From an uncultured Bacteroidota bacterium (GTDB lineage: Bacteria > Bacteroidota > Bacteroidia > 2-12-FULL-35-15), in NCBI GenBank assembly GCA_903926385.1, contig CAIYIS010000061.1, positions 14,864 to 78,863 on the forward strand: DNA of 64,000 bases. The letters are read 5' to 3'. Under the pieces are notes generated by a model. It did no database searches, was not told the origin of the DNA, and was given only the letters and a program-made list of their open reading frames with translations. The translations under genes were made by a program, and so were the position numbers. This document shows, piece by piece, positions 43,777 through 53,215 of this stretch. Within the stretch, counting starts at the first letter, position 1. The number at the start of each line of letters is the position of its first letter.

Positions 43777-45318
43777 TTACTTCGCAAAGTTCACAGCTCT
43801 CGTTTCTCTAATTACAGTTACTTTCACCTGTCCCGGATAAGTCATTTCTGTCTGTATTCGTTGAGAAATGTCAAATGATAGTGTTTCCGCATCCTTATCA
43901 GTTACTTTATCCGAAGATACCAACACTCTCAACTCTCTTCCTGCCTGAATAGCGTATGTTTTCTCCACTCCCGGGTATGATAAAGCTAATGCTTCCAAAT
44001 CTTTTAGTCGTTTAATGTATTGTTCCACCACTTCTCGTCTTGCACCTGGTCTTGCACCGCTTATTGCATCGCAAACCTGTACAATCGGGGCTATCAATGT
44101 GGTCATTTCTATCTCGTCATGGTGAGCTCCAATGGCGTTACAAACTTCTGGTTTCTCCTTATATTTTTCTGCCAATTGCATACCCAAAATAGCATGTGGA
44201 ATTTCCGGTTGATCATCTGGAACTTTACCTATATCGTGAAGTAAACCGGCACGTTTTGCTACTTTTACATTCAACCCAAGTTCTGCTGCCATGGTAGCAC
44301 ACAGATTAGCTACTTCTCTCGAGTGTTGAAGCAAGTTTTGTCCGTATGAAGACCTGTATTTCATTCTTCCTACCATTCTAATCAGTTCAGGATGGAGTCC
44401 ATGTATGCCTAAGTCAATAGTGGTTCGTTTTCCAATCTCCACTATCTCGTCTTCTATCTGTTTTTTTACCTTTTCCACCACTTCTTCAATACGAGCTGGG
44501 TGAATCCTTCCGTCCGTTACAAGCTGGTGTAATGCCAAACGAGCTATTTCTCTTCTCACAGGGTCGAAACCAGATAATATAATCGCTTCTGGGGTATCAT
44601 CCACAATAATTTCTATTCCTGTGGCTGCTTCCAAAGCACGAATATTTCGTCCTTCTCTTCCTATCACACGTCCTTTTATCTCATCATTTTCAATATGAAA
44701 AATGGACACGGAGTTTTCGATGGCATGTTCAGTAGCCACCCGTTGGATGGTTTGAATAACCACTTTTTTAGCCTCCATATTAGCCGATATCTTGGCCTCT
44801 TCCACTATGTCTTTTATCATCGACATGGCACCTGTTTTAGCTTCTGCCTTCAGCGATTCCATCAATTGGGCTTTTGCTTCTTCGGCTTTCAGTCCGCTTA
44901 ATGTCTCCAATTGTTCCACCTGTCTGCGGTGAAATTTATCTACCTCCTGTTGTTTGGAGTTTACCAGTTCCAACTGATGAGTCAGGTTTTGTCTCAAGGT
45001 GTCCAGTTCCACATCTTTTCGTTGAACATGTTCCTGTTTTTGCGAAAGACTCTGTTCTTTCTGCTTAAGTCTGTTTTCTGACTGCAGTAAAGCCTGATTT
45101 TTTTCGGTAATTACTTTTTCGTGTTCCGTTTTTAGTTGCAAAAATTTCTCTTTTGCCTGAAGCATTTTGTCCTTCTTTATTACTTCTGCTTCGGCCTCTG
45201 CGTCTTTAATTATATTTTGAGCTTTACCTTCATTCGATTTTTTTATCATCAGATAGGCAACAAATGCTCCCAGACCAATCCCTACAAGGGCCGCTGCGGC
45301 AACCAGTATTACTTCCAT
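43777..45318 (-). CDS. rny: Ribonuclease Y
   Basis: N-terminal TM, coiled coil, KH ([13 protein letters not shown]), HD (LLHDIGK). Confidence 0.97.
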
Positions 45319-45462
45319 AATTTTTCTAAATTGTTAAGTTGTTGTTATTAATTTTAATCCTCTTTCGTCTGTTTAGCGGTTGCCAAATTAAACTTAAAAG
45401 GTGCACTCAAAAAACTAATACAGGTAATTTTGTTTACAATGTTGTGTTCACAACATCAAAAC

Positions 45463-45756
45463 TTAGGCAGACGTGCTCTCTTTTTGAAGGTATTGGGAAA
45501 CAAATAGGTCGAGTTGGTTTATTTCTTTCTCCAGCTCAGGCGATTTTTTAGGTGTGTTTTGTTGCGCTACTAATAAATTTAATGCAGTCATTGCGAGTAA
45601 ATCTTGTTTGTCTCTCACTGCATAGTTTTGCTCCATTTCTTTCACTTTATCACTAATCATTTTAGCTGTATTTTGAACCAATTGTTCCTCTTCCTTTTTT
45701 ACGGTTAAGGGGTAGGTTCTGCCAGCAATTAAAACTTTTATTGATACTTCGGCCAT
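45463..45756 (-). CDS. zapA: Cell division protein ZapA
   Basis: IKVLIAGRTYPL...DKQDLLAMTAL; conserved position upstream of rny. Confidence 0.9.
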   Translation of the reverse strand: MAEVSIKVLIAGRTYPLTVKKEEEQLVQNTAKMISDKVKEMEQNYAVRDKQDLLAMTALNLLVAQQNTPKKSPELEKEINQLDLFVSQYLQKESTSA

Positions 45757-45848
45757 CTTATTTATCTCAGGTTTTTGGTTTTTTGTGCCGGGGAGCTCTA
45801 CTTTGCACTATATGTATTCTTCCCGATACGCGAACTGAAAACTTTTTT

Positions 45849-46133
45849 TTACTTCAAAAGAGTAATGCAATTGTCTATTTCCTGCACTAGCTCATTAATC
45901 TTTAATTTTGTTTCTGATATTACTTCTTTCTGTTCCTGATTATTTCTTTCTGCTAATTCCGCCTTTTCTTTTTCTAATTTCTCAATAATTGATTTTTGTT
46001 CTTCCAGAGTTTTACTTAACGTTGAATTTTCATTCAGGAGTTGTTCTTTCTCTTCTTTCAGTTGTTTGTGCAAACTAACCAAATGTTCTATTTTTGCTTT
46101 TAAGTTGGTAATCGTACCAGTCAATTCTTCCAT
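45849..46133 (-). CDS. ZapB-like coiled-coil protein
   Basis: All coiled coil, ending KINELVQEIDNCITLL; directly upstream of zapA; TATCTTTG promoter element at 46167-46174. Confidence 0.75.
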   Translation of the reverse strand: MEELTGTITNLKAKIEHLVSLHKQLKEEKEQLLNENSTLSKTLEEQKSIIEKLEKEKAELAERNNQEQKEVISETKLKINELVQEIDNCITLLK

Positions 46134-46258: not shown

Positions 46259-46504
46259 CTATTTTTTGATGACAATAGATAATTCCATTCCTCCACATTT
46301 AGGGCAATTTCCAGCTTTGTCAGATAATACTTCCGGATGCATTTCACATTGATAGAAGACTTCTCCATCTTTCAGTTTGGTAGTATCCAGATTAAATGTT
46401 TGTGTTGAATTTGTTTGCTCTCCGGTTGAGGTTGCATTTTTACATCCCACAACAGAAAGAGCAATTATAGCTGTTATCAATAATATTAGTTTTTTTATTC
46501 TCAT
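46259..46504 (-). CDS. Heavy-metal-binding domain lipoprotein
   Basis: Lipobox VVGC; YQCEMHPEV.SDKAGNCPKCGGMEL motif. Confidence 0.88.
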   Translation of the reverse strand: MRIKKLILLITAIIALSVVGCKNATSTGEQTNSTQTFNLDTTKLKDGEVFYQCEMHPEVLSDKAGNCPKCGGMELSIVIKK

Positions 46505-46789: not shown

Positions 46790-47443
46790 CTATTCTATCA
46801 ACCCATTTTTGATGGCATACATTACCGCACCAATGATGTTTTTTGCTCCGGTTTTCTTGATAATGTTTTTTTTATGAGTTTCAACGGTGGTTGTGTCTAT
46901 GTGCAATTTTTCGGCTATATATAAATTGGTACATTCTTTACATACTAATTCAAAAACTTCAAGTTCCCTTTCCGTTAAGGTCACCTTTTCGAATTTTGGT
47001 TTAATTTTTTTTGTAATCATTAATTCTTTTACCAAAGCTCTCGGAACTTTATCATTAAAAAAGTATCCGTTTTCTTTAACAGAATAAATGGCGTCAACAA
47101 TGGTTTCAATGGTATTGTTCTTTAATAAAAACCCCCGAGCGCCCAATTCAATTAAGTGCAACATTATTTCTTCCGAATGATGATGAGTTAGGATTATAAC
47201 TTTGAGGTCGGGATGGTGTTTGGTAAGATAGGCCGTGGTTTCAACTCCGTCCATCTTTGGCATATCCACATCTAGCAATACAATATCAGGAACTTCAATC
47301 TTTAATTTTTCAATAAAATCCGATCCGTTTTCGGCTTCCATAAGTATTTTTATATCGCGAAATGATTTGAATAATGTTTTTAACCCCTTAATAAATATAC
47401 CGTGATCGTCAACTATTGCAATTTTTATTTGGACCATACCCAA
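46790..47443 (-). CDS. NarL/LuxR-family response regulator
   Basis: IVDDH, LLDVDMPKMDG, GFLLKN; HTH LTERELEV...TVETHKKNI. Confidence 0.95.
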   Translation of the reverse strand: MGMVQIKIAIVDDHGIFIKGLKTLFKSFRDIKILMEAENGSDFIEKLKIEVPDIVLLDVDMPKMDGVETTAYLTKHHPDLKVIILTHHHSEEIMLHLIELGARGFLLKNNTIETIVDAIYSVKENGYFFNDKVPRALVKELMITKKIKPKFEKVTLTERELEVFELVCKECTNLYIAEKLHIDTTTVETHKKNIIKKTGAKNIIGAVMYAIKNGLIE

Positions 47444-47456
47444 AATATCAAGTTTG

Positions 47457-48290
47457 TTAAAATGTTTTTAATTTGATTTGTGTTTCTTCTAATTCTGTTT
47501 CAGGAACCGAGATTTTAATTCGAGACGTAATTTTATCAGAACTATAATAAAGAGTAGCATTTAATGTTTGTACCCTGCTTTTAATACTTCTCAACCCTAT
47601 GCCATTTGCGGTATGCGAAAGGATTTCTGCTTTTTCATCTGTTAATCCATCGCTGTTGTATTCAAAGTAAATGTTTAGTACTTTGTCGTAATGAATGGTT
47701 AAATTTACCTGTGTGGCATCAGCATGTTTGATAATATTATTGAGTAGTTCTTTTGTAATTCGATACAACTGCAATTCGTTTTTTGGAGAAAATCGTTGGT
47801 TTTTTAAATTGTGAACATATTCAATTCGTTTTTGTCCTGAAGCATTGAGCATCGAGCAAAGTTCTTTCATGGCATACACAAAACCCAGGCGGATGAGAGC
47901 TGGTGGCATTAAATCGTATATTATGGTACGGCTGGTTTCTATGGTGTTTTCTAAAAGCTGTATCGACTCGTCCATAACTTCAGAAACCAAATCTTTGTCT
48001 TGCATATTGGCTTTCATTATTTCAAAATTTTTAGAAATAAAATTAAGATTAGCTCCAACATCATCGTGCAGATTTTTGGCTATTTTTTCGCGTTCTTTTT
48101 CGGTCACCAAAATTTCAGACTCCAACAATTTTTGACGATGCTGAAGGTTTAATAATTCCAGTTCGCTTTGCTTTACAGACATTCGTTTTTTGTGTGCAAT
48201 CACAAAAATGATTAATGCAGAAACCAGCAGAAGCATTCCCATGCAGCCCAATACTATAAAATAGGCTATATTTATTTTTTCAGTTTCCAA
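47457..48290 (-). CDS. Single-TM sensor histidine kinase (HisKA_3), no extracellular sensor domain
   Basis: One N-terminal TM; EREKIAKNLHDDVG; ELLNNIIKHA; GIGLRSI. Confidence 0.92.
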   Translation of the reverse strand: METEKINIAYFIVLGCMGMLLLVSALIIFVIAHKKRMSVKQSELELLNLQHRQKLLESEILVTEKEREKIAKNLHDDVGANLNFISKNFEIMKANMQDKDLVSEVMDESIQLLENTIETSRTIIYDLMPPALIRLGFVYAMKELCSMLNASGQKRIEYVHNLKNQRFSPKNELQLYRITKELLNNIIKHADATQVNLTIHYDKVLNIYFEYNSDGLTDEKAEILSHTANGIGLRSIKSRVQTLNATLYYSSDKITSRIKISVPETELEETQIKLKTF

Positions 48291-48916
48291 AATCCAATAC
48301 TTATAGGTATGTAGTAAATCATATTCATAAGAGGTAATATAATTGCAGCGTTTTTGCTTTCTTTGCAGGCCGCATCATATAAAAAACTGCTGAATAAAAA
48401 GTAGAATAAATTGCCGGAGTAATAAAACAGGAATGCACTATTTATTAAAAATAATGGATTGTTTACCATAGTGCCTTCTGAGGTTAGCATCAGTTGATAA
48501 AAAAGAATCACTGTGTAAATAATCATCAGTAAGGCTTCGAGTGAAAGCGCATAATCATTTATTTTTAAAGAAGAATGTACAATATAATCAAAAATGGCAA
48601 CAATAATATAAATAAGAAAACTTGCTACAATAAATACACGAGCACTTCGGTTTGTTATTACTTTATAATAAAAAAGGCTTAGTAGTGCAAATTCCAAAAA
48701 TGCACCTGTTCTTATAAATATAAGATTGTTCCATTTATGCAGAAAGTAATACATAGAAATTGTTTCAGCAAAGCAATAAAGGATAATTAGAAAGTAAATA
48801 AATTTTAACTGTGGGTGGTTGTATGCCTTGTTGATGCTTCCTGTAATAAGAGGAAAGATGAGGAACAACACAGCTCCATAAGTAAGAAGTTTAATCAGTT
48901 TTATTTCAATTTCCAT
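48272..48916 (-). CDS. Polytopic (6-7 TM) membrane protein, probable sensory partner of the kinase
   Basis: Almost entirely hydrophobic helices; its stop overlaps the kinase start by 19 nt. Confidence 0.8.
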   Translation of the reverse strand: MEIEIKLIKLLTYGAVLFLIFPLITGSINKAYNHPQLKFIYFLIILYCFAETISMYYFLHKWNNLIFIRTGAFLEFALLSLFYYKVITNRSARVFIVASFLIYIIVAIFDYIVHSSLKINDYALSLEALLMIIYTVILFYQLMLTSEGTMVNNPLFLINSAFLFYYSGNLFYFLFSSFLYDAACKESKNAAIILPLMNMIYYIPISIGFWKLKK

Positions 48917-48939
48917 TCCTGTTTCATTTGTTGAATAAA

Positions 48940-48975
48940 AAAGGAAAAAGGCAGAATTAACTGCCTTTCTCCTTT
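48940..48975 (-). terminator. Intrinsic terminator/attenuator between the small gene and the membrane protein gene
   Basis: Minus strand aaaggagaaaggcag-ttaatt-ctgcctttttccttttt. Confidence 0.8.
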
Positions 48976-48978
48976 AAT

Positions 48979-49293
48979 TTACTTAGTAAAAGGACTGTTA
49001 ATATCACATACCGAAAGGCAAGGTGCAGAAAGATCTCCCAATTTTCCATTTGGTAAATCATTACCATTAATATCTACACCAACTAATACTAGCTGACGTT
49101 CACCATTGTTGTTTATGGCTTGATAGATTCTAATGCCGACAGCATTGGGCTGAGTGAGCACTGTATTGATAATGGATTTGCCAAAGTAATGCGCTTTTAC
49201 TTCACCGGGATAATTAGCCTGATACTTTTTTACCATTGTTATGGCATCTGTAAGTTGAATTTCTCCACCTGCGTTTGGATTGAATGTTGACAT
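48979..49293 (-). CDS. 104-aa hypothetical protein with GIRIY/LVLVGVD core and C-terminal PCxxxC
   Basis: Good A-rich TIR; first gene of the membrane protein-HK-RR unit; no signal peptide. Confidence 0.8.
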   Translation of the reverse strand: MSTFNPNAGGEIQLTDAITMVKKYQANYPGEVKAHYFGKSIINTVLTQPNAVGIRIYQAINNNGERQLVLVGVDINGNDLPNGKLGDLSAPCLSVCDINSPFTK

Positions 49294-49440: not shown

Positions 49441-49525
49441 TCTACCTGATTCGGGTAGATAAAATCCCTGAATCAGGTAGAAGAAAAAATCCCTGAATCA
49501 GGTAGAAAATCTACCTGATTCAGAT
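49441..49525. promoter_or_regulatory. Four palindromic boxes CCTGA-W-TC(A/G)GG; putative response-regulator operators
   Basis: Centres at 49450, 49472, 49497 and 49519; two identical 22-nt copies aaaatccctgaatcaggtagaa; the last box abuts TTTG (49525), with TATCTTTG at 49550-49557. Confidence 0.7.
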
Positions 49526-49582: not shown

Positions 49583-49804
49583 ATGTGTAATCTTAGTAAT
49601 ATGGAAAAGGATAAATTAAGCTTAGAAAAGCTATGTATAAACATTGCCGATGTGCAGGATGTTTTGTATTGGTGCAACAGACTAAACTGTGACCAGATTG
49701 ATTTGGTAAATGCCGTCAGGTCTATAGGCAATAAAGCCAATATGGTGGACATGATATTGGTGTTAAATAAATGGAAAGGACGTACTCATTCTAAAGTAAG
49801 ATAA
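49583..49804 (+). CDS. Small DUF3606-like protein
   Basis: DVLYWCNRLNCDQIDLVNAVRSIG resembles the DUF3606 pattern (..YW...G.....L..AV..VG); -33/-7 promoter upstream. Confidence 0.6.
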   Translation: MCNLSNMEKDKLSLEKLCINIADVQDVLYWCNRLNCDQIDLVNAVRSIGNKANMVDMILVLNKWKGRTHSKVR

Positions 49805-50033: not shown

Positions 50034-50534
50034 ATGGCAAATGCAACAGAAAACAGAATAAACGTTACGATATCTGCAGCCAAAATAATCGCAATCGAAA
50101 CAGCATTTACAGATATAAATGCTGCTCTGGATGGCTGTACGGTGGCTCTGACAGATGACGAACGTAAATCGTTATTCAGTCTGGATGTGGAAAACAAGGA
50201 TTTTGCAAACGACTGTATGGCTCAGGGCATGGCACTAATTGCCTCTCTGCCTCCAGCTTTGCAAACCATTGTTACCAATCTGCAAAACGACCTTGCCCTG
50301 AATGCTCAGCTCGATAGGATAGAAAATCTCCTATTAGCGTTGGTACAGCAACGTGTGGCAGACACCAAGCGGATGTCGGCTCACGAGGCTTATGTGGCGG
50401 CTTTGGCTATCTATAAATTTATAGAAGCTATGGCAGGTATGGGTATTGAAGGCTTTCAGGCTGCTTACGATATACTGAAACCACGTTTTGAAGGACAGGG
50501 TGTAAAACCATCTACACAGGGTCCTACTGGTTAA
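50034..50534 (+). CDS. All-helical hypothetical protein
   Basis: 166 aa; pattern LT.DERK.L...DL.L..QL...DT....EAY.AAL.IY...A..G..G....YD.LK.RF, recalled as a widespread uncharacterised Bacteroidota family. Confidence 0.8.
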   Translation: MANATENRINVTISAAKIIAIETAFTDINAALDGCTVALTDDERKSLFSLDVENKDFANDCMAQGMALIASLPPALQTIVTNLQNDLALNAQLDRIENLLLALVQQRVADTKRMSAHEAYVAALAIYKFIEAMAGMGIEGFQAAYDILKPRFEGQGVKPSTQGPTG

Positions 50535-51573: not shown

Positions 51574-52155
51574 ATGAAAAAATCAATTTTATTCATTCTA
51601 GCCATAGTATTAACTGCATTGTCTTTGAATGCTAAAGCACAAACCTGTTCAAGTCAAATCCTAAAGCCGTATAACGGGCCAAAAACAACTGATGAATTAA
51701 GTTCGTTACTTTGGACATCTACTAATCCTGTTATAAGAGGGATTGATAGTGCAACAAAAGTTTCACTAATTAAATATGTTGCGTTTTACAATGGATTTCC
51801 AAAAAGCATGAATGGAACGGATGATAATATCCAGACACTTTATAGGTCTGGGGCTTTCGCTCAAATTTTTAGTGCTATTATTGGCTGGAAAGTGAACATG
51901 TGTACTTATGAAACTTTGCCTGTTGCGATCTCGATGTCTGTAGATGATTTTATGAAGCTTTATAACGCAGACCCTACAAAAATGGCTTTTGAACCAGAAT
52001 TAAATTGGTGTTCAAATTGCTATAACCCAGGTGACCCTACTGGTCCTACTTCGAGTGGTGATGGTATTCATTGTTGTCAAACTCCTAGTAACCATGGTTG
52101 TTCCGACCCTGCAATTTGGGTTCCTAATGGTGGTGGCTGGTACATTGTAAGATAA
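51574..52155 (+). CDS. Secreted protein with Cys/Pro/Gly-rich C-terminal tail
   Basis: Signal peptide ending AKA-Q; tail WCSNCY...HCCQ...GCSDPAIW; TAATTTTG promoter element at 51552. Confidence 0.75.
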   Translation: MKKSILFILAIVLTALSLNAKAQTCSSQILKPYNGPKTTDELSSLLWTSTNPVIRGIDSATKVSLIKYVAFYNGFPKSMNGTDDNIQTLYRSGAFAQIFSAIIGWKVNMCTYETLPVAISMSVDDFMKLYNADPTKMAFEPELNWCSNCYNPGDPTGPTSSGDGIHCCQTPSNHGCSDPAIWVPNGGGWYIVR

Positions 52156-52165
52156 TTAAATTAAC

Positions 52166-53215
52166 TTGAAAACAGAACCATCTAAGAATAGATGGTTCTG
52201 TTTTGATAATTATATGCGAATTAGAATCCTTTTATCCATTTTCCTCTTATTTGTGCAATTTTCAATTGCACAATGCAAGTTGTTGATTAAACAAATTAAT
52301 CGAAATGCAGACACAATTCCTCACTTAATTATTGCGAATTTTCAAGAGGTCGTCCCTGTAAAATTAAACGATAGTGTTATGGAATATACTTTTGAAATGA
52401 AACAACCGGAATATTTTTTTGTGGTTGCCGATAAACATAATTGGTGGAATGTAAGGGTCTGGATGGAGCCAGAAATTGAAAAGAGAGAAATTACAATTGA
52501 TTATAAGTCAAGAAAAATTTCTATAAAGGATACAACAGATTGGGAAAAATTATTATTTAAAATAGATACCCTATATAAAGCAAAAAAGCATGATGAAATT
52601 TATTCAATAGAAAATAAATTTATTGAAAACCGACCAAACTCTTTTCTTTCTCTTTGGCTTTATTCATATTGTTCTGTTTTATCACTAACGCAAAATGAAA
52701 ATATTACATTATTTAAAAAACTTAGTTCTTCATTAGAAACGTATAGTATATATAAGCAATCAAAAGCTTCGCTAACTGCACGCAAATACCCCAATTATGG
52801 AGATAATTTTAAAGAGTTTACTTTAAATGATAACAAAGAAATACCATTTAACTCTACATCCATTAACAACAAAATAATTATTCTTCATTTTTGGAGCACT
52901 GGTTGTGGCCCATGTGTAAAAGGAATGGATGAGCTTGTTAAATTTTATAAATCGTTAGACACTTCTAAAATTGCTTTTATATCTGTTTCGCTTGATGAAG
53001 ATAAAAGCAAATGGAAAAAATCGGCCACCACAAATAAAATAATATGGGCAAACTTATGGACAGAAGATAACTCTTATTGCGACCTCTGTTTAAACTATAA
53101 CCTCACGGCAATGCCTTATTTTGTTATGTTTAATAAAGAAAAGAAAATAACTTTCTACAATGATGGAGAAGATATTGAACTTTTGAAAAGTAAATTAAAG
53201 GAGATTGATAAATAA
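52166..53215 (+). CDS. TlpA-family thiol-disulfide oxidoreductase
   Basis: HFWSTGCGPC; ISVSLD; AMPYFVMFN. True start probably MRIRILL. Confidence 0.85.
   Translation: MKTEPSKNRWFCFDNYMRIRILLSIFLLFVQFSIAQCKLLIKQINRNADTIPHLIIANFQEVVPVKLNDSVMEYTFEMKQPEYFFVVADKHNWWNVRVWMEPEIEKREITIDYKSRKISIKDTTDWEKLLFKIDTLYKAKKHDEIYSIENKFIENRPNSFLSLWLYSYCSVLSLTQNENITLFKKLSSSLETYSIYKQSKASLTARKYPNYGDNFKEFTLNDNKEIPFNSTSINNKIIILHFWSTGCGPCVKGMDELVKFYKSLDTSKIAFISVSLDEDKSKWKKSATTNKIIWANLWTEDNSYCDLCLNYNLTAMPYFVMFNKEKKITFYNDGEDIELLKSKLKEIDK

Follow-up and report, generated by a model that had tools for sequence, protein, structure and literature searches.

The window, by which we mean the whole 64,000-nucleotide stretch of DNA that was analysed, contains a compact locus of four genes encoding a small protein (S), a membrane protein (T), a histidine kinase (HK) and a response regulator (RR), together with a terminator-like hairpin between S and T and a set of palindromes upstream of S (Table 1). 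An earlier note on this DNA had described the genes as one co-oriented unit, and indeed all four open reading frames lie on the minus strand at the positions claimed. The membrane gene was also said to overlap the kinase gene, which is the case over 19 nt, and its product has seven predicted helices. The four genes can be regarded as real because relatives of S elsewhere have T as the next downstream gene in nearly all cases (see below).

Table 1. Genes and sequence features of the locus, with positions counted from the first nucleotide of the window.
Feature	Position	Strand	Description
S	48979-49293	minus	104 aa, leaderless alpha/beta domain protein, C-terminus GDLSAPCLSVCDINSPFTK
Terminator-like hairpin and T-run	48940-48975	minus	S-T spacer
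T	48272-48916	minus	214 aa, seven transmembrane helices, predicted N-out/C-in topology and predicted GPCR-like bundle
HK	47457-48290	minus	277 aa, one N-terminal membrane helix, HisKA_3 and HATPase_c
RR	46790-47443	minus	217 aa, receiver and GerE/LuxR helix-turn-helix, NarL class
Four operator-like palindromes CTACCTGATTCAGG	49442-49524		Upstream of S, candidate RR binding sites

Pfam searches identified HisKA_3 (33 bits) and HATPase_c (31 bits) in HK, and Response_reg (92 bits) and GerE (52 bits) in RR. The match of HK to the NCBIfam model Strep_LiaS (45 bits, cut-off 450) lies below the equivalog level, and the best NCBIfam models for RR, MctR (142, cut-off 300) and NarL (117, cut-off 250), were likewise not reached. 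As had been noted from the sequence, the kinase has a single membrane segment and no sensor domain: its sole hydrophobic segment comprises residues 12-30 and is separated by about 35 residues from HisKA_3. Since so little protein precedes the phospho-acceptor helix, HK is presumably unable to detect a signal alone.

Neither Pfam nor NCBIfam contains a family that covers T. Among 59 members of the T family only stray single Pfam matches were obtained, and none of the Pfam 7TM families was matched consistently. The AlphaFold2 model of T has seven helices and a pLDDT of 93.5. In a comparison with VIA, 50 of the 50 matches listed were GPCR-type 7TM chains, with Z-scores of 14.2 to 10.5 across residues 1-214, the best being a designed GPCR-like fold (Z 14.2, rmsd 4.1, 201 aligned residues), followed by LYCHOS (13.4) and Ste2 (12.8); helical bundles below about Z 13 may match by arrangement alone in such comparisons, and the scores of T, up to 14.2, fall within the range that is reachable in this way. 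Foldseek returned TMq values of 0.5-0.63, but with E-values of 0.02-0.2. The distribution of lysine and arginine residues predicts an N-out, C-in topology for all 63 T family members considered (63/63). The alignment of the family has no invariant or nearly invariant columns; conserved polar residues within the membrane are N64, H69, Y71, E75, Y165, N177 and N202. The possibility that T is an AgrB-like peptidase was rejected, as T has no conserved Cys or His and no AgrB-like catalytic pair. A prediction of the T and S complex, run without controls, had a score of 0.00, and we give it no weight in either direction.

S likewise has no family in Pfam or NCBIfam, and Pfam searches with each of its family members gave stray single matches only. 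A profile search (E≤1e-3) nonetheless defined a large family of 1877 representatives at 50% identity, and a contig search with the single S protein returned one locus (36% identity), which belongs to the MAG of an uncultured member of the Flavobacteriales. Phage copies of S were found neither by tblastn against phage genomes nor in two alignment-based scans of viral contigs. The AlphaFold2 model of S (pLDDT 89.2) is a folded alpha/beta domain of about 95 residues, for which the PDB offered no match (Foldseek E≥0.17; VIA Z≤3.4, with CopG and YpmB among the weak rows). When the S-family and T-family profiles were compared with PDB sequences, nothing was found below an E-value of 0.01, and ESM Atlas searches matched only unnamed Bacteroidota clusters. 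Conservation extends over the whole length of S, and the invariant residues are spread across positions 55-96; three of them, R55, Y57 and D79, are located far from the C-terminal tail. The family includes single, tandem two-domain, leaderless, lipoprotein and membrane-anchored forms. The S protein of the window has no export signal and no lipobox, and from its sequence it is most likely cytoplasmic in this organism.

The C-terminus of S in the window reads C92-L-S-V-C96, followed by the tail DINSPFTK. Most family members end in P-C-P-x-x-C, in line with the PCPPxC tails that the earlier note had mentioned for similar Bacteroidota proteins. The suggestion that PCLSVC could be a specificity variant was not upheld: P93 is found in at least 90% of the members, a 98%-identical relative has CPSVC, and the codon of L93 in the window (CTT) differs from a proline codon (CCT) by a single base. 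A C-x3-C motif occurs inside the last 30 residues of 54 of the 67 S open reading frames collected for the synteny analysis, with varying residues between the cysteines, and many exported forms stop exactly at the second cysteine, without a tail. About 10 of these 67 relatives have lost one or both cysteines and yet retain T, HK and RR, which weakens the idea that the cysteine pair serves as a universal redox or metal sensor.

To define the conservation of the locus we used these 67 S-family open reading frames, which come from 48 Bacteroidota genomes including that of the window; the related loci are kin and should not be counted as independent events. T lies directly 3' of S on the same strand in 63 of the 67 cases. 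Two of the remaining four are located at contig ends and one is ordered RR-T-HK-S. Within 4 kb, 57 of the 63 T genes are followed by a histidine kinase gene, and 46 by a NarL-type regulator as well. The linkage of small-gene homologs to TM, HK and RR genes, which the earlier note had put up as a test of its reading, was thus found, and an unlinked distribution, which would have refuted that reading, was not seen. The T and HK reading frames overlap in 42 of the 57 loci, and in 8 more the gap between them does not exceed 30 nt, while the spacer between S and T measures 30 nt or less in 39 of the 63 loci. Most of the 57 kinases are short HisKA_3 proteins (42), while 3 are longer HisKA_3 proteins (two of them with PAS domains) and 12 belong to PAS-HisKA, hybrid or CHASE3 types; 51 have one hydrophobic segment near the N-terminus. 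Only 3 switches of kinase class are seen along the tree of T, so that the notion of a portable input module rests on few events. No further conserved neighbour was found in 65 related loci, the next-largest gene cluster covering at most 6 of them, nor did any exporter or processing gene accompany the module in this set. A gene for a heavy-metal-binding lipoprotein, which is adjacent in the window and had been considered as a partner, is not conserved in the related loci.

Among 301 sampled Bacteroidota genomes, T was detected in 69 and S in 37. We therefore also inspected 20 T loci that have no strong S match. A kinase follows T in 17 of them, and 16 of these 17 kinases have a single hydrophobic segment in their first 60 residues. 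Directly upstream of T, most of these 20 loci have a diverged S (7 loci), a protein with a CPPxC or PCPP tail (2 loci) or another small protein (5 loci). Taken together, these data support the view that the four genes form a single conserved signalling unit. A literature search found no paper on an S-T-HK-RR module among the open-access papers covered.

Two features of the locus may bear on its expression. The S-T spacer of the window contains a 15-pair hairpin followed by TTTATT (spacer MFE −22.9 kcal/mol). A scan of 3.3 kb detected 3 terminator-like sites where 2.0 were expected, and a single site of this kind is therefore weak evidence. However, the terminator claimed earlier gains support from its position, because among 9 loci from the genus of the window, its own included, 7 have a hairpin with a T-run in the corresponding position (L018 and L020-L024 besides the window), with stems that differ in sequence. 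The hairpin may be a partial terminator that would leave S mRNA in excess over T-HK-RR mRNA in the window. An excess of S cannot be a general feature of the module, given how many loci have almost no spacer between S and T.

The second feature is the palindrome CTACCTGATTCAGG, which is present in four copies, spaced by 25, 25 and 19 nt, between 149 and 231 nt ahead of the start codon of S. A search of the 4.27-Mb genome of the window for the 14-mer with up to one mismatch gave these 4 copies and no others; of 7 genomic matches to the perfect 11-mer core, 2 belong to the cluster upstream of S and the other 5 are isolated. Of 66 loci, 6 have spaced triple 9-mer repeats ahead of S, compared to 16 of 2422 control windows, and analogous triple palindromes of other sequence precede S in L018, L019, L025, L026 and L031. 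We infer that the palindromes are candidate binding sites of the NarL-type regulator. Their distance to S is 149 nt but only 59 nt to a divergent DUF3606 gene, and either gene could be the target.

On the basis of these observations, we consider it somewhat probable that the cassette is an accessory-protein-dependent two-component system, in which S and T together provide the input to the sensor-less kinase. T would be a stand-alone GPCR-like seven-helix receptor module, translationally coupled to HK, and HK would receive its input from T inside the membrane through a presumed T-HK contact. S, with its folded domain and its proline-rich P-C-P-x-x-C knob, would be a dedicated partner that modulates T, probably by touching it directly; the direction of this effect and the nature of the signal are matters of inference. 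The phosphorylated regulator may then bind the four tandem palindromes and so autoregulate the operon, and if the terminator is leaky, S would accumulate above T, HK and RR and could double as a feedback element. The proposal made earlier, that a split receptor consisting of the TM protein and the kinase senses the small protein or a peptide released from it, thus survives in part: a two-piece T/HK receptor is the best reading, while the released peptide is not. A difficulty for the role assigned to S is that 40 S-T pairs have a leaderless S and 23 have one that is exported or anchored, S having switched repeatedly between these states beside a T protein of fixed topology. This makes a single docking face for S hard to envisage.

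As a whole, the cassette gives the impression of a new bacterial sensor that relies on accessory proteins, and not of a circuit for a peptide pheromone. The latter would resemble agr or com quorum sensing, with S as an abundant precursor from which a disulfide-cyclised C-terminal peptide is released and sensed by T and HK. Several properties of the locus are compatible with such a scheme, including S as the first gene with a terminator behind it, the tandem operator-like repeats in the promoter region as in autoinduced loci, the frequent C-x3-C motif with its variable inter-cysteine residues, the predicted receptor-like 7TM fold of T and the absence of a leader from S, AgrD being leaderless as well. 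We nevertheless regard it as very unlikely. S is a folded 95-aa domain (pLDDT 89) that is conserved from end to end, its invariant residues R55, Y57 and D79 lie off the tail, and the lipoprotein, anchored and tandem two-domain forms cannot diffuse. Moreover, the 65 related loci have no peptidase or exporter gene in common, T has no invariant residue, the regulator is of the GerE and not the LytTR type, S relatives with missing cysteines keep the rest of the cassette, and many exported S proteins have no residues beyond the second cysteine. The claim that S is the precursor of a released, disulfide-cyclised peptide is thus poorly supported by the present data.

The possibility that S is mainly an output, either stress-protective or involved in redox or metal handling like LiaI/LiaH, with T alone as a LiaF-like kinase partner, appears doubtful but deserves more weight than the pheromone scheme. 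It would agree with the placement of S directly behind the operator-like repeats, with its separation from T-HK-RR by a terminator, with the lack of other co-located target genes and with the fact that T is commoner than detectable S; liaIH, too, is described in the account of PMC3567932 as the sole relevant Lia target. Against it speak the fact that S stays next to T whatever the kinase class and in different classes of the phylum, the many short S-T spacers, which suggest stoichiometric co-production, and the small S-like or lipoprotein genes found immediately ahead of T in the majority of the loci where S has no strong match. The overlap of T and HK, and the existence of polytopic 7TM kinases such as BtsS (PMC10653868), could alternatively mean that a polytopic kinase was recently split into T and HK, with S as an unrelated neighbour. 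This is extremely improbable, since the split arrangement is held in 57 loci across the phylum, S and T are linked in 63 of 67 cases, and the N-out/C-in topology of T implies that a fusion of the kinase helix to its C-terminus would place the kinase domain outside; in addition, searches of longer proteins with the single sequence and the T alignment (E≤1e-3) yielded no fused T-kinase, although this is weak evidence.

A bolder version of the favoured two-component reading is that T is a true bacterial GPCR-like receptor and S its protein ligand. The rigid P-C-P-P-aromatic-C knob of S and its tail would then dock in a polar pocket that T forms with its helices 3, 6 and 7, and the resulting change would pass sideways to the single helix of the adjacent kinase. 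We consider this unlikely. If it were true, the cassette would represent a relay from ligand to 7TM receptor to kinase without known counterpart in bacteria, S could act between cells wherever the leaderless form is released, and wherever S changed from a leaderless to an exported form or back, signalling would have moved from inside to outside the cell or the reverse.

The input of sensor-less kinases is an open problem that has been approached in only a few Firmicute systems so far (Lia, Sae and Bce), and the present cassette is widespread and strictly syntenic. It provides a context for two large hypothetical-protein families without a name in any database, one of which is represented by a stand-alone, probably GPCR-like seven-helix protein that is paired with several kinase classes. 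This is a compact and genetically tractable case in which one might study how a 7TM receptor passes a signal on to a kinase inside the membrane, and the alternation of cytoplasmic-looking and exported S beside a fixed T is a concrete puzzle that is open to simple localisation experiments.

Among known systems, agr-type loci encode a leaderless small product, a polytopic protein, a kinase and a regulator, and rely on an AgrB-type peptidase or an ABC/C39 exporter. The cassette shares with agrBDCA the small leaderless first product, the polytopic protein, the kinase and the regulator in one unit, which is autoregulated in agr and putatively so here. However, S is a folded domain and not a short leader with a core peptide, T is devoid of conserved catalytic residues, the kinase is a HisKA_3 protein with one helix instead of a polytopic one, and the regulator is of the GerE and not the LytTR type. 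In the 7TMR-DISM and LytS-type BtsS proteins (PMC10653868 for the latter), seven membrane helices serve as the kinase input, as we propose for T. There the 7TM part and the kinase form one polypeptide, whereas T is a separate 214-aa protein that belongs to no catalogued Pfam 7TM family; a fused form was not found, which again weighs little.

Two further systems have separate accessory proteins. For saePQRS of Staphylococcus aureus, PMC5083920 describes a ternary complex of SaeS, the kinase, with a lipoprotein and a membrane protein, and autoinduction of the P1 promoter. Similar to our cassette, sae has four genes, of which those for a small protein (extracytoplasmic in sae) and a membrane protein come before the two signalling genes. 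SaeS senses inside the membrane, as we propose for HK, and is tuned by the complex with SaeP and SaeQ, and the first promoter is autoinduced via regulator sites (PMC5083920, PMC3748130), the corresponding sites in the cassette being candidates. The two differ in that T has seven helices and SaeQ four predicted ones, that the S protein of the window has no lipobox while SaeP is a 146-aa lipoprotein (PMC5083920), and that the gene order is P-Q-R-S in sae but S-T-HK-RR here. By Pfam, which has no family for S or T, no family is shared, SaeP and SaeQ having been compared by description only.

The three-component LiaFSR envelope-stress system of Bacillus subtilis also combines a HisKA_3 kinase that has no extracytoplasmic sensor with a NarL-type regulator, and the gene for its membrane accessory protein is located just 5' of the kinase gene. 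LiaS has two membrane helices where the kinase of the cassette has one. T, with seven helices in a predicted GPCR-like bundle and no Pfam match, is not a LiaF-type protein, S is unrelated to LiaI and LiaH, and the host of the cassette is a member of the Bacteroidota. For the liaIH-liaGFSR locus, PMC3567932 describes LiaF as the inhibitor specific to LiaRS, and a weak terminator after liaH, with read-through that gives autoregulation. An autoregulated promoter before small genes, a weak terminator and read-through into the signalling genes are features that Lia shares with the arrangement that we propose for the cassette, where autoregulation is deduced from the repeats upstream of S.

Four co-oriented ORFs on the minus strand encode a small protein (S), a membrane protein (T), a histidine kinase (HK) and a response regulator (RR), together forming the cassette (see the table). 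Pfam assigned HisKA_3 and HATPase_c domains to HK and Response_reg and GerE domains to RR; no Pfam or NCBIfam family matched S or T, and all named NCBIfam kinase and regulator models scored far below their own cut-offs for HK and RR. Because HK has one hydrophobic segment (residues 12-30) and its HisKA_3 match begins as early as residue 66, it has no space for a sensor domain. ORF calls, Pfam and hydrophobicity thus agree with the earlier note, which had described a co-oriented four-gene unit with a T/HK overlap and a sensor-less kinase with a single transmembrane segment. Among the surrounding genes, RNase Y and ZapA are ordinary housekeeping neighbours, the HMBD ORF does not accompany the cassette in related loci, and the cysteine-rich ORF and the Redoxin-like gene may, judged from sequence, encode a secreted disulfide-rich protein and its own oxidoreductase.

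Features of the cassette and its surroundings in the window
Feature	Position	Strand	Description
RNase Y and ZapA	43777-46133	-	RNase_Y_N, KH and HD domains in RNase Y
HMBD ORF	46259-46504	-	81 aa, lipoprotein-like; heavy-metal-binding domain (39 bits); 285 nt downstream of RR
RR	46790-47443	-	ORF, 217 aa; starts 13 nt past HK
HK	47457-48290	-	ORF, 277 aa; 19-nt overlap with T
T	48272-48916	-	ORF, 214 aa
Hairpin between S and T	48975-48940	-	15 pairs, then T-run
S	48979-49293	-	ORF, 104 aa
Repeats upstream of S	49442-49524		four copies of a palindromic 14-mer
DUF3606 ORF	49583-49804	+	73 aa, divergent from S; Pfam DUF3606 (29 bits)
166-aa ORF	50034-50534	+	no Pfam or NCBIfam family; in a stretch of raised GC, 0.44 (about 0.33 around)
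Cysteine-rich ORF and Redoxin-like gene	51574-53215	+	193 aa, hydrophobic N-terminus, signal-peptide-like by eye, no Pfam family; directly followed by a 349-aa thioredoxin-like/Redoxin protein

A word-based search returned only five close relatives of S. The profile built from these matched 1877 of 1.84 billion representative proteins at E<=1e-3; of these, 756 remained at E<=1e-10 and 24 at E<=1e-30. In a subset of 154 family members, 59 were single domains of 95-125 aa and most others were tandem two-domain forms of about 210-280 aa; the membership of P0105, a 1318-aa repeat protein matching the profile over part of its length only, is doubtful. Many of the longer forms begin with a lipoprotein signal, a Sec signal or a membrane anchor, and in most 100-aa forms the domain starts directly at the N-terminus. 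Across 60 single-domain members no substitution occurs at R55, Y57, D79, C92 or C96, and at least 90% have P93 and L102. The S of the window has L93 (codon CTT, one transition away from CCT), where a 98%-identical relative and four other close relatives have P. AlphaFold2 confidently predicted a fold of two helices and three strands (pLDDT 89.2), and no solved structure in the PDB was found that convincingly matched the model or the sequence. Phage genomes and viral contigs searched with the S family yielded no phage-borne member.

Whole genomes were searched with the S profile, 12-14 kb were taken around every match, and all ORFs in these loci were scored with S, T, HK and RR profiles derived from the loci together with the window. 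Of 61 genomes related to that of the window, 15 matched the S profile, among them 8 of the 36 that share its genus; across the phylum, 37 of 301 sampled genomes matched. The linkage set comprised 67 S ORFs from 48 genomes, the window included, and since these genomes are kin the counts represent non-independent events. T lies directly downstream of S on the same strand in 63 of the 67 cases; within 4 kb past T, 57 of these 63 pairs have a histidine kinase and 46 also a NarL-type RR. The gene-neighbourhood analysis proposed in the earlier note therefore bears out a linkage of S homologs to T, kinase and regulator. The four S ORFs lacking an adjacent T are L049b and L075 (contig ends), L057 (gene order RR-T-HK-S) and L029, where S is a 252-aa exported two-domain form and T is absent nearby; the six S-T pairs lacking a kinase past T are L040, L049a (contig end), L061, L066 (RR only), L081 and L082. 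No further gene family near the cassette was common to more than six loci, and the cassette is therefore self-contained. Variant arrangements include two or three T paralogs in tandem, placed after S and before the kinase (L046 and L059 on G245:C7, L058 on G143:C1) and a row of leaderless S, T and anchored S (L049, G143:C34).

The AlphaFold2 model of T consists of seven long helices (pLDDT 93.5). Its best 50 VIA matches were all GPCR-type seven-helix chains aligned across residues 1-214, with Z values of 14.2 for a designed GPCR-like fold, 13.4 for LYCHOS and 12.8 for Ste2; Foldseek gave the same kind of match (TMq 0.5-0.63), but not significantly so (E 0.02-0.2). The modelled fold of T thus appears GPCR-like; we do not claim homology, and no relative of T was found in Pfam, NCBIfam or the PDB. 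Lysine plus arginine counts place loops 1, 3 and 5 and the C-terminus inside in 63/63 members. A kinase helix joined to the end of T would, on this predicted topology, leave the kinase outside the cell, and since searches among longer proteins also found no fused T-kinase form, it is unlikely that T and HK arose by a recent split of one gene. The T alignment has no invariant column; the best-kept positions are polar residues in helices 3, 6 and 7 and outer loop 2, which fits a pocket or relay rather than an enzyme. The T of the window is divergent, with R69, G71, S177, A191 and Y202 where the family has H, Y, N, W and N. T is commoner than detectable S (69 versus 37 of the same 301 genomes). 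Among 20 high-scoring T loci picked for having no strong S match, 17 have a kinase after T, and 16 of these kinases carry a single hydrophobic segment within residues 1-60. Immediately upstream of T, seven loci have a diverged S, five another small or lipoprotein gene and two a gene for a 250-aa protein whose tail is of the CPPxC or PCPP type; the remaining six have no small gene directly upstream.

In 42 of the 57 loci the T and HK ORFs overlap, and in 8 more they are at most 30 nt apart; 51 of the 57 kinases show one hydrophobic segment close to the N-terminus. Where no HisKA_3-profile match followed T, re-examination by Pfam identified PAS plus HisKA kinases, a hybrid kinase with a receiver domain and a CHASE3-PAS kinase; PAS plus HisKA_3 occurred among the long kinases already caught by the HisKA_3 profile. 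Kinase class switches three times on the tree of 63 T proteins, indicating that the S-T pair has joined with different kinases, though only a few times.

Allowing one mismatch, the 14-mer upstream of S has four sites in the 4.27-Mb genome, all within the repeat block (reversed control: 0 forward, 1 reverse). Exact matches to its 11-mer core number seven in the whole genome, two in the block and five isolated (control: 2). Three or more spaced copies of a 9-mer, contained in a span of 120 nt, are present upstream of S in 6/66 loci, compared to 16/2422 control windows from the same loci; the repeated words vary by locus, most of them being palindromes with the pattern GTnA...TnAC at a spacing of 22-26 nt. 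These repeats are candidate sites for the GerE-type regulator, and the operon would then be autoregulated. In the window they lie only 59 nt from the start of the divergent DUF3606 gene, so that the S promoter is only their putative target. The DUF3606 ORF is kept upstream of S in seven same-genus loci and may share regulation through the tandem palindromes. As to the terminator noted earlier after S, a hairpin with a T-run recurs in the S-T spacer of 7/9 loci of the window's genus, with differing stems, and several loci belonging to another class have GC-rich hairpins. The excess of S that had been deduced from it would be a local rather than a general feature, because the spacer measures at most 30 nt in 39/63 loci.

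In the 63 S-T pairs S is leaderless in 40, with open frames too short upstream for any signal, and exported or anchored in 23. This label changes at least seven times on the T tree, three changes being forced by well-supported branches, and L038 (exported) and L052 (leaderless) form a sister pair. Predicted T topology and conserved residues are the same in both groups. Either the face of the complex on which S acts differs between lineages, or leaderless S gets across the membrane by some route. The cysteine pair is kept in 23/23 exported single-domain forms and lost in 7/41 leaderless forms; L028, the eighth in that tally, has the pair upstream of the last 30 residues. This pattern among related genomes hints at a disulfide relevant only outside the cytoplasm and, equally tentatively, at a cytoplasmic location of leaderless S such as that of the window. 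One or both cysteines are lost in L089, L093 and L094 (also L025, L032 and L077-L079), with T, kinase and regulator kept; tails of cysteine-deficient relatives read PSPPY/F, PTPPFG or PCPPYG.

The earlier note proposed that T and HK sense S itself or a disulfide-cyclised C-terminal peptide released from it. A C-x3-C motif does lie within the last 30 residues of 54/67 S ORFs (just upstream of these in L028). However, the cysteines are not universal: 2/67 have C-x2-C and about 10/67 miss one or both, most of these retaining a P-x-P-P-aromatic motif along with the complete cassette. Moreover, S forms a folded domain that is conserved from end to end and has anchored, lipoprotein and tandem relatives, no conserved exporter or peptidase gene lies near the cassette, T has no catalytic signature and the regulator is not of the LytTR type. 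We consider such a pheromone circuit very improbable. It is instead fairly probable that S and T supply the input within a three-protein sensor and that the NarL-type regulator acts back on the S promoter: HK by itself would be unable to sense, it would be translationally coupled to the receptor-like seven-helix T, and T is almost always preceded by S. In this scheme we infer the protein contacts, regulator binding, partial termination and stimulus.

S and T fall only into unnamed Bacteroidota clusters in the Atlas, and no description of the cassette was found in the open-access literature, to which the search applied. We regard the cassette as probably a two-component system that depends on accessory proteins, these coming from two uncatalogued families. 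The closest known systems, liaIH-liaGFSR and saePQRS, work like the proposed S-T scheme. According to passages in PMC3567932, LiaF specifically inhibits LiaRS, the principal target is liaIH, and read-through of a weak terminator behind liaH allows autoregulation. Passages in PMC5083920 and PMC3748130 describe a ternary complex of the lipoprotein SaeP, the membrane protein SaeQ and SaeS, in which SaeP/SaeQ switch on SaeS phosphatase, and an autoinduced P1 promoter. The proteins themselves differ, S and T lying outside the Lia protein families and probably outside the Sae ones too.
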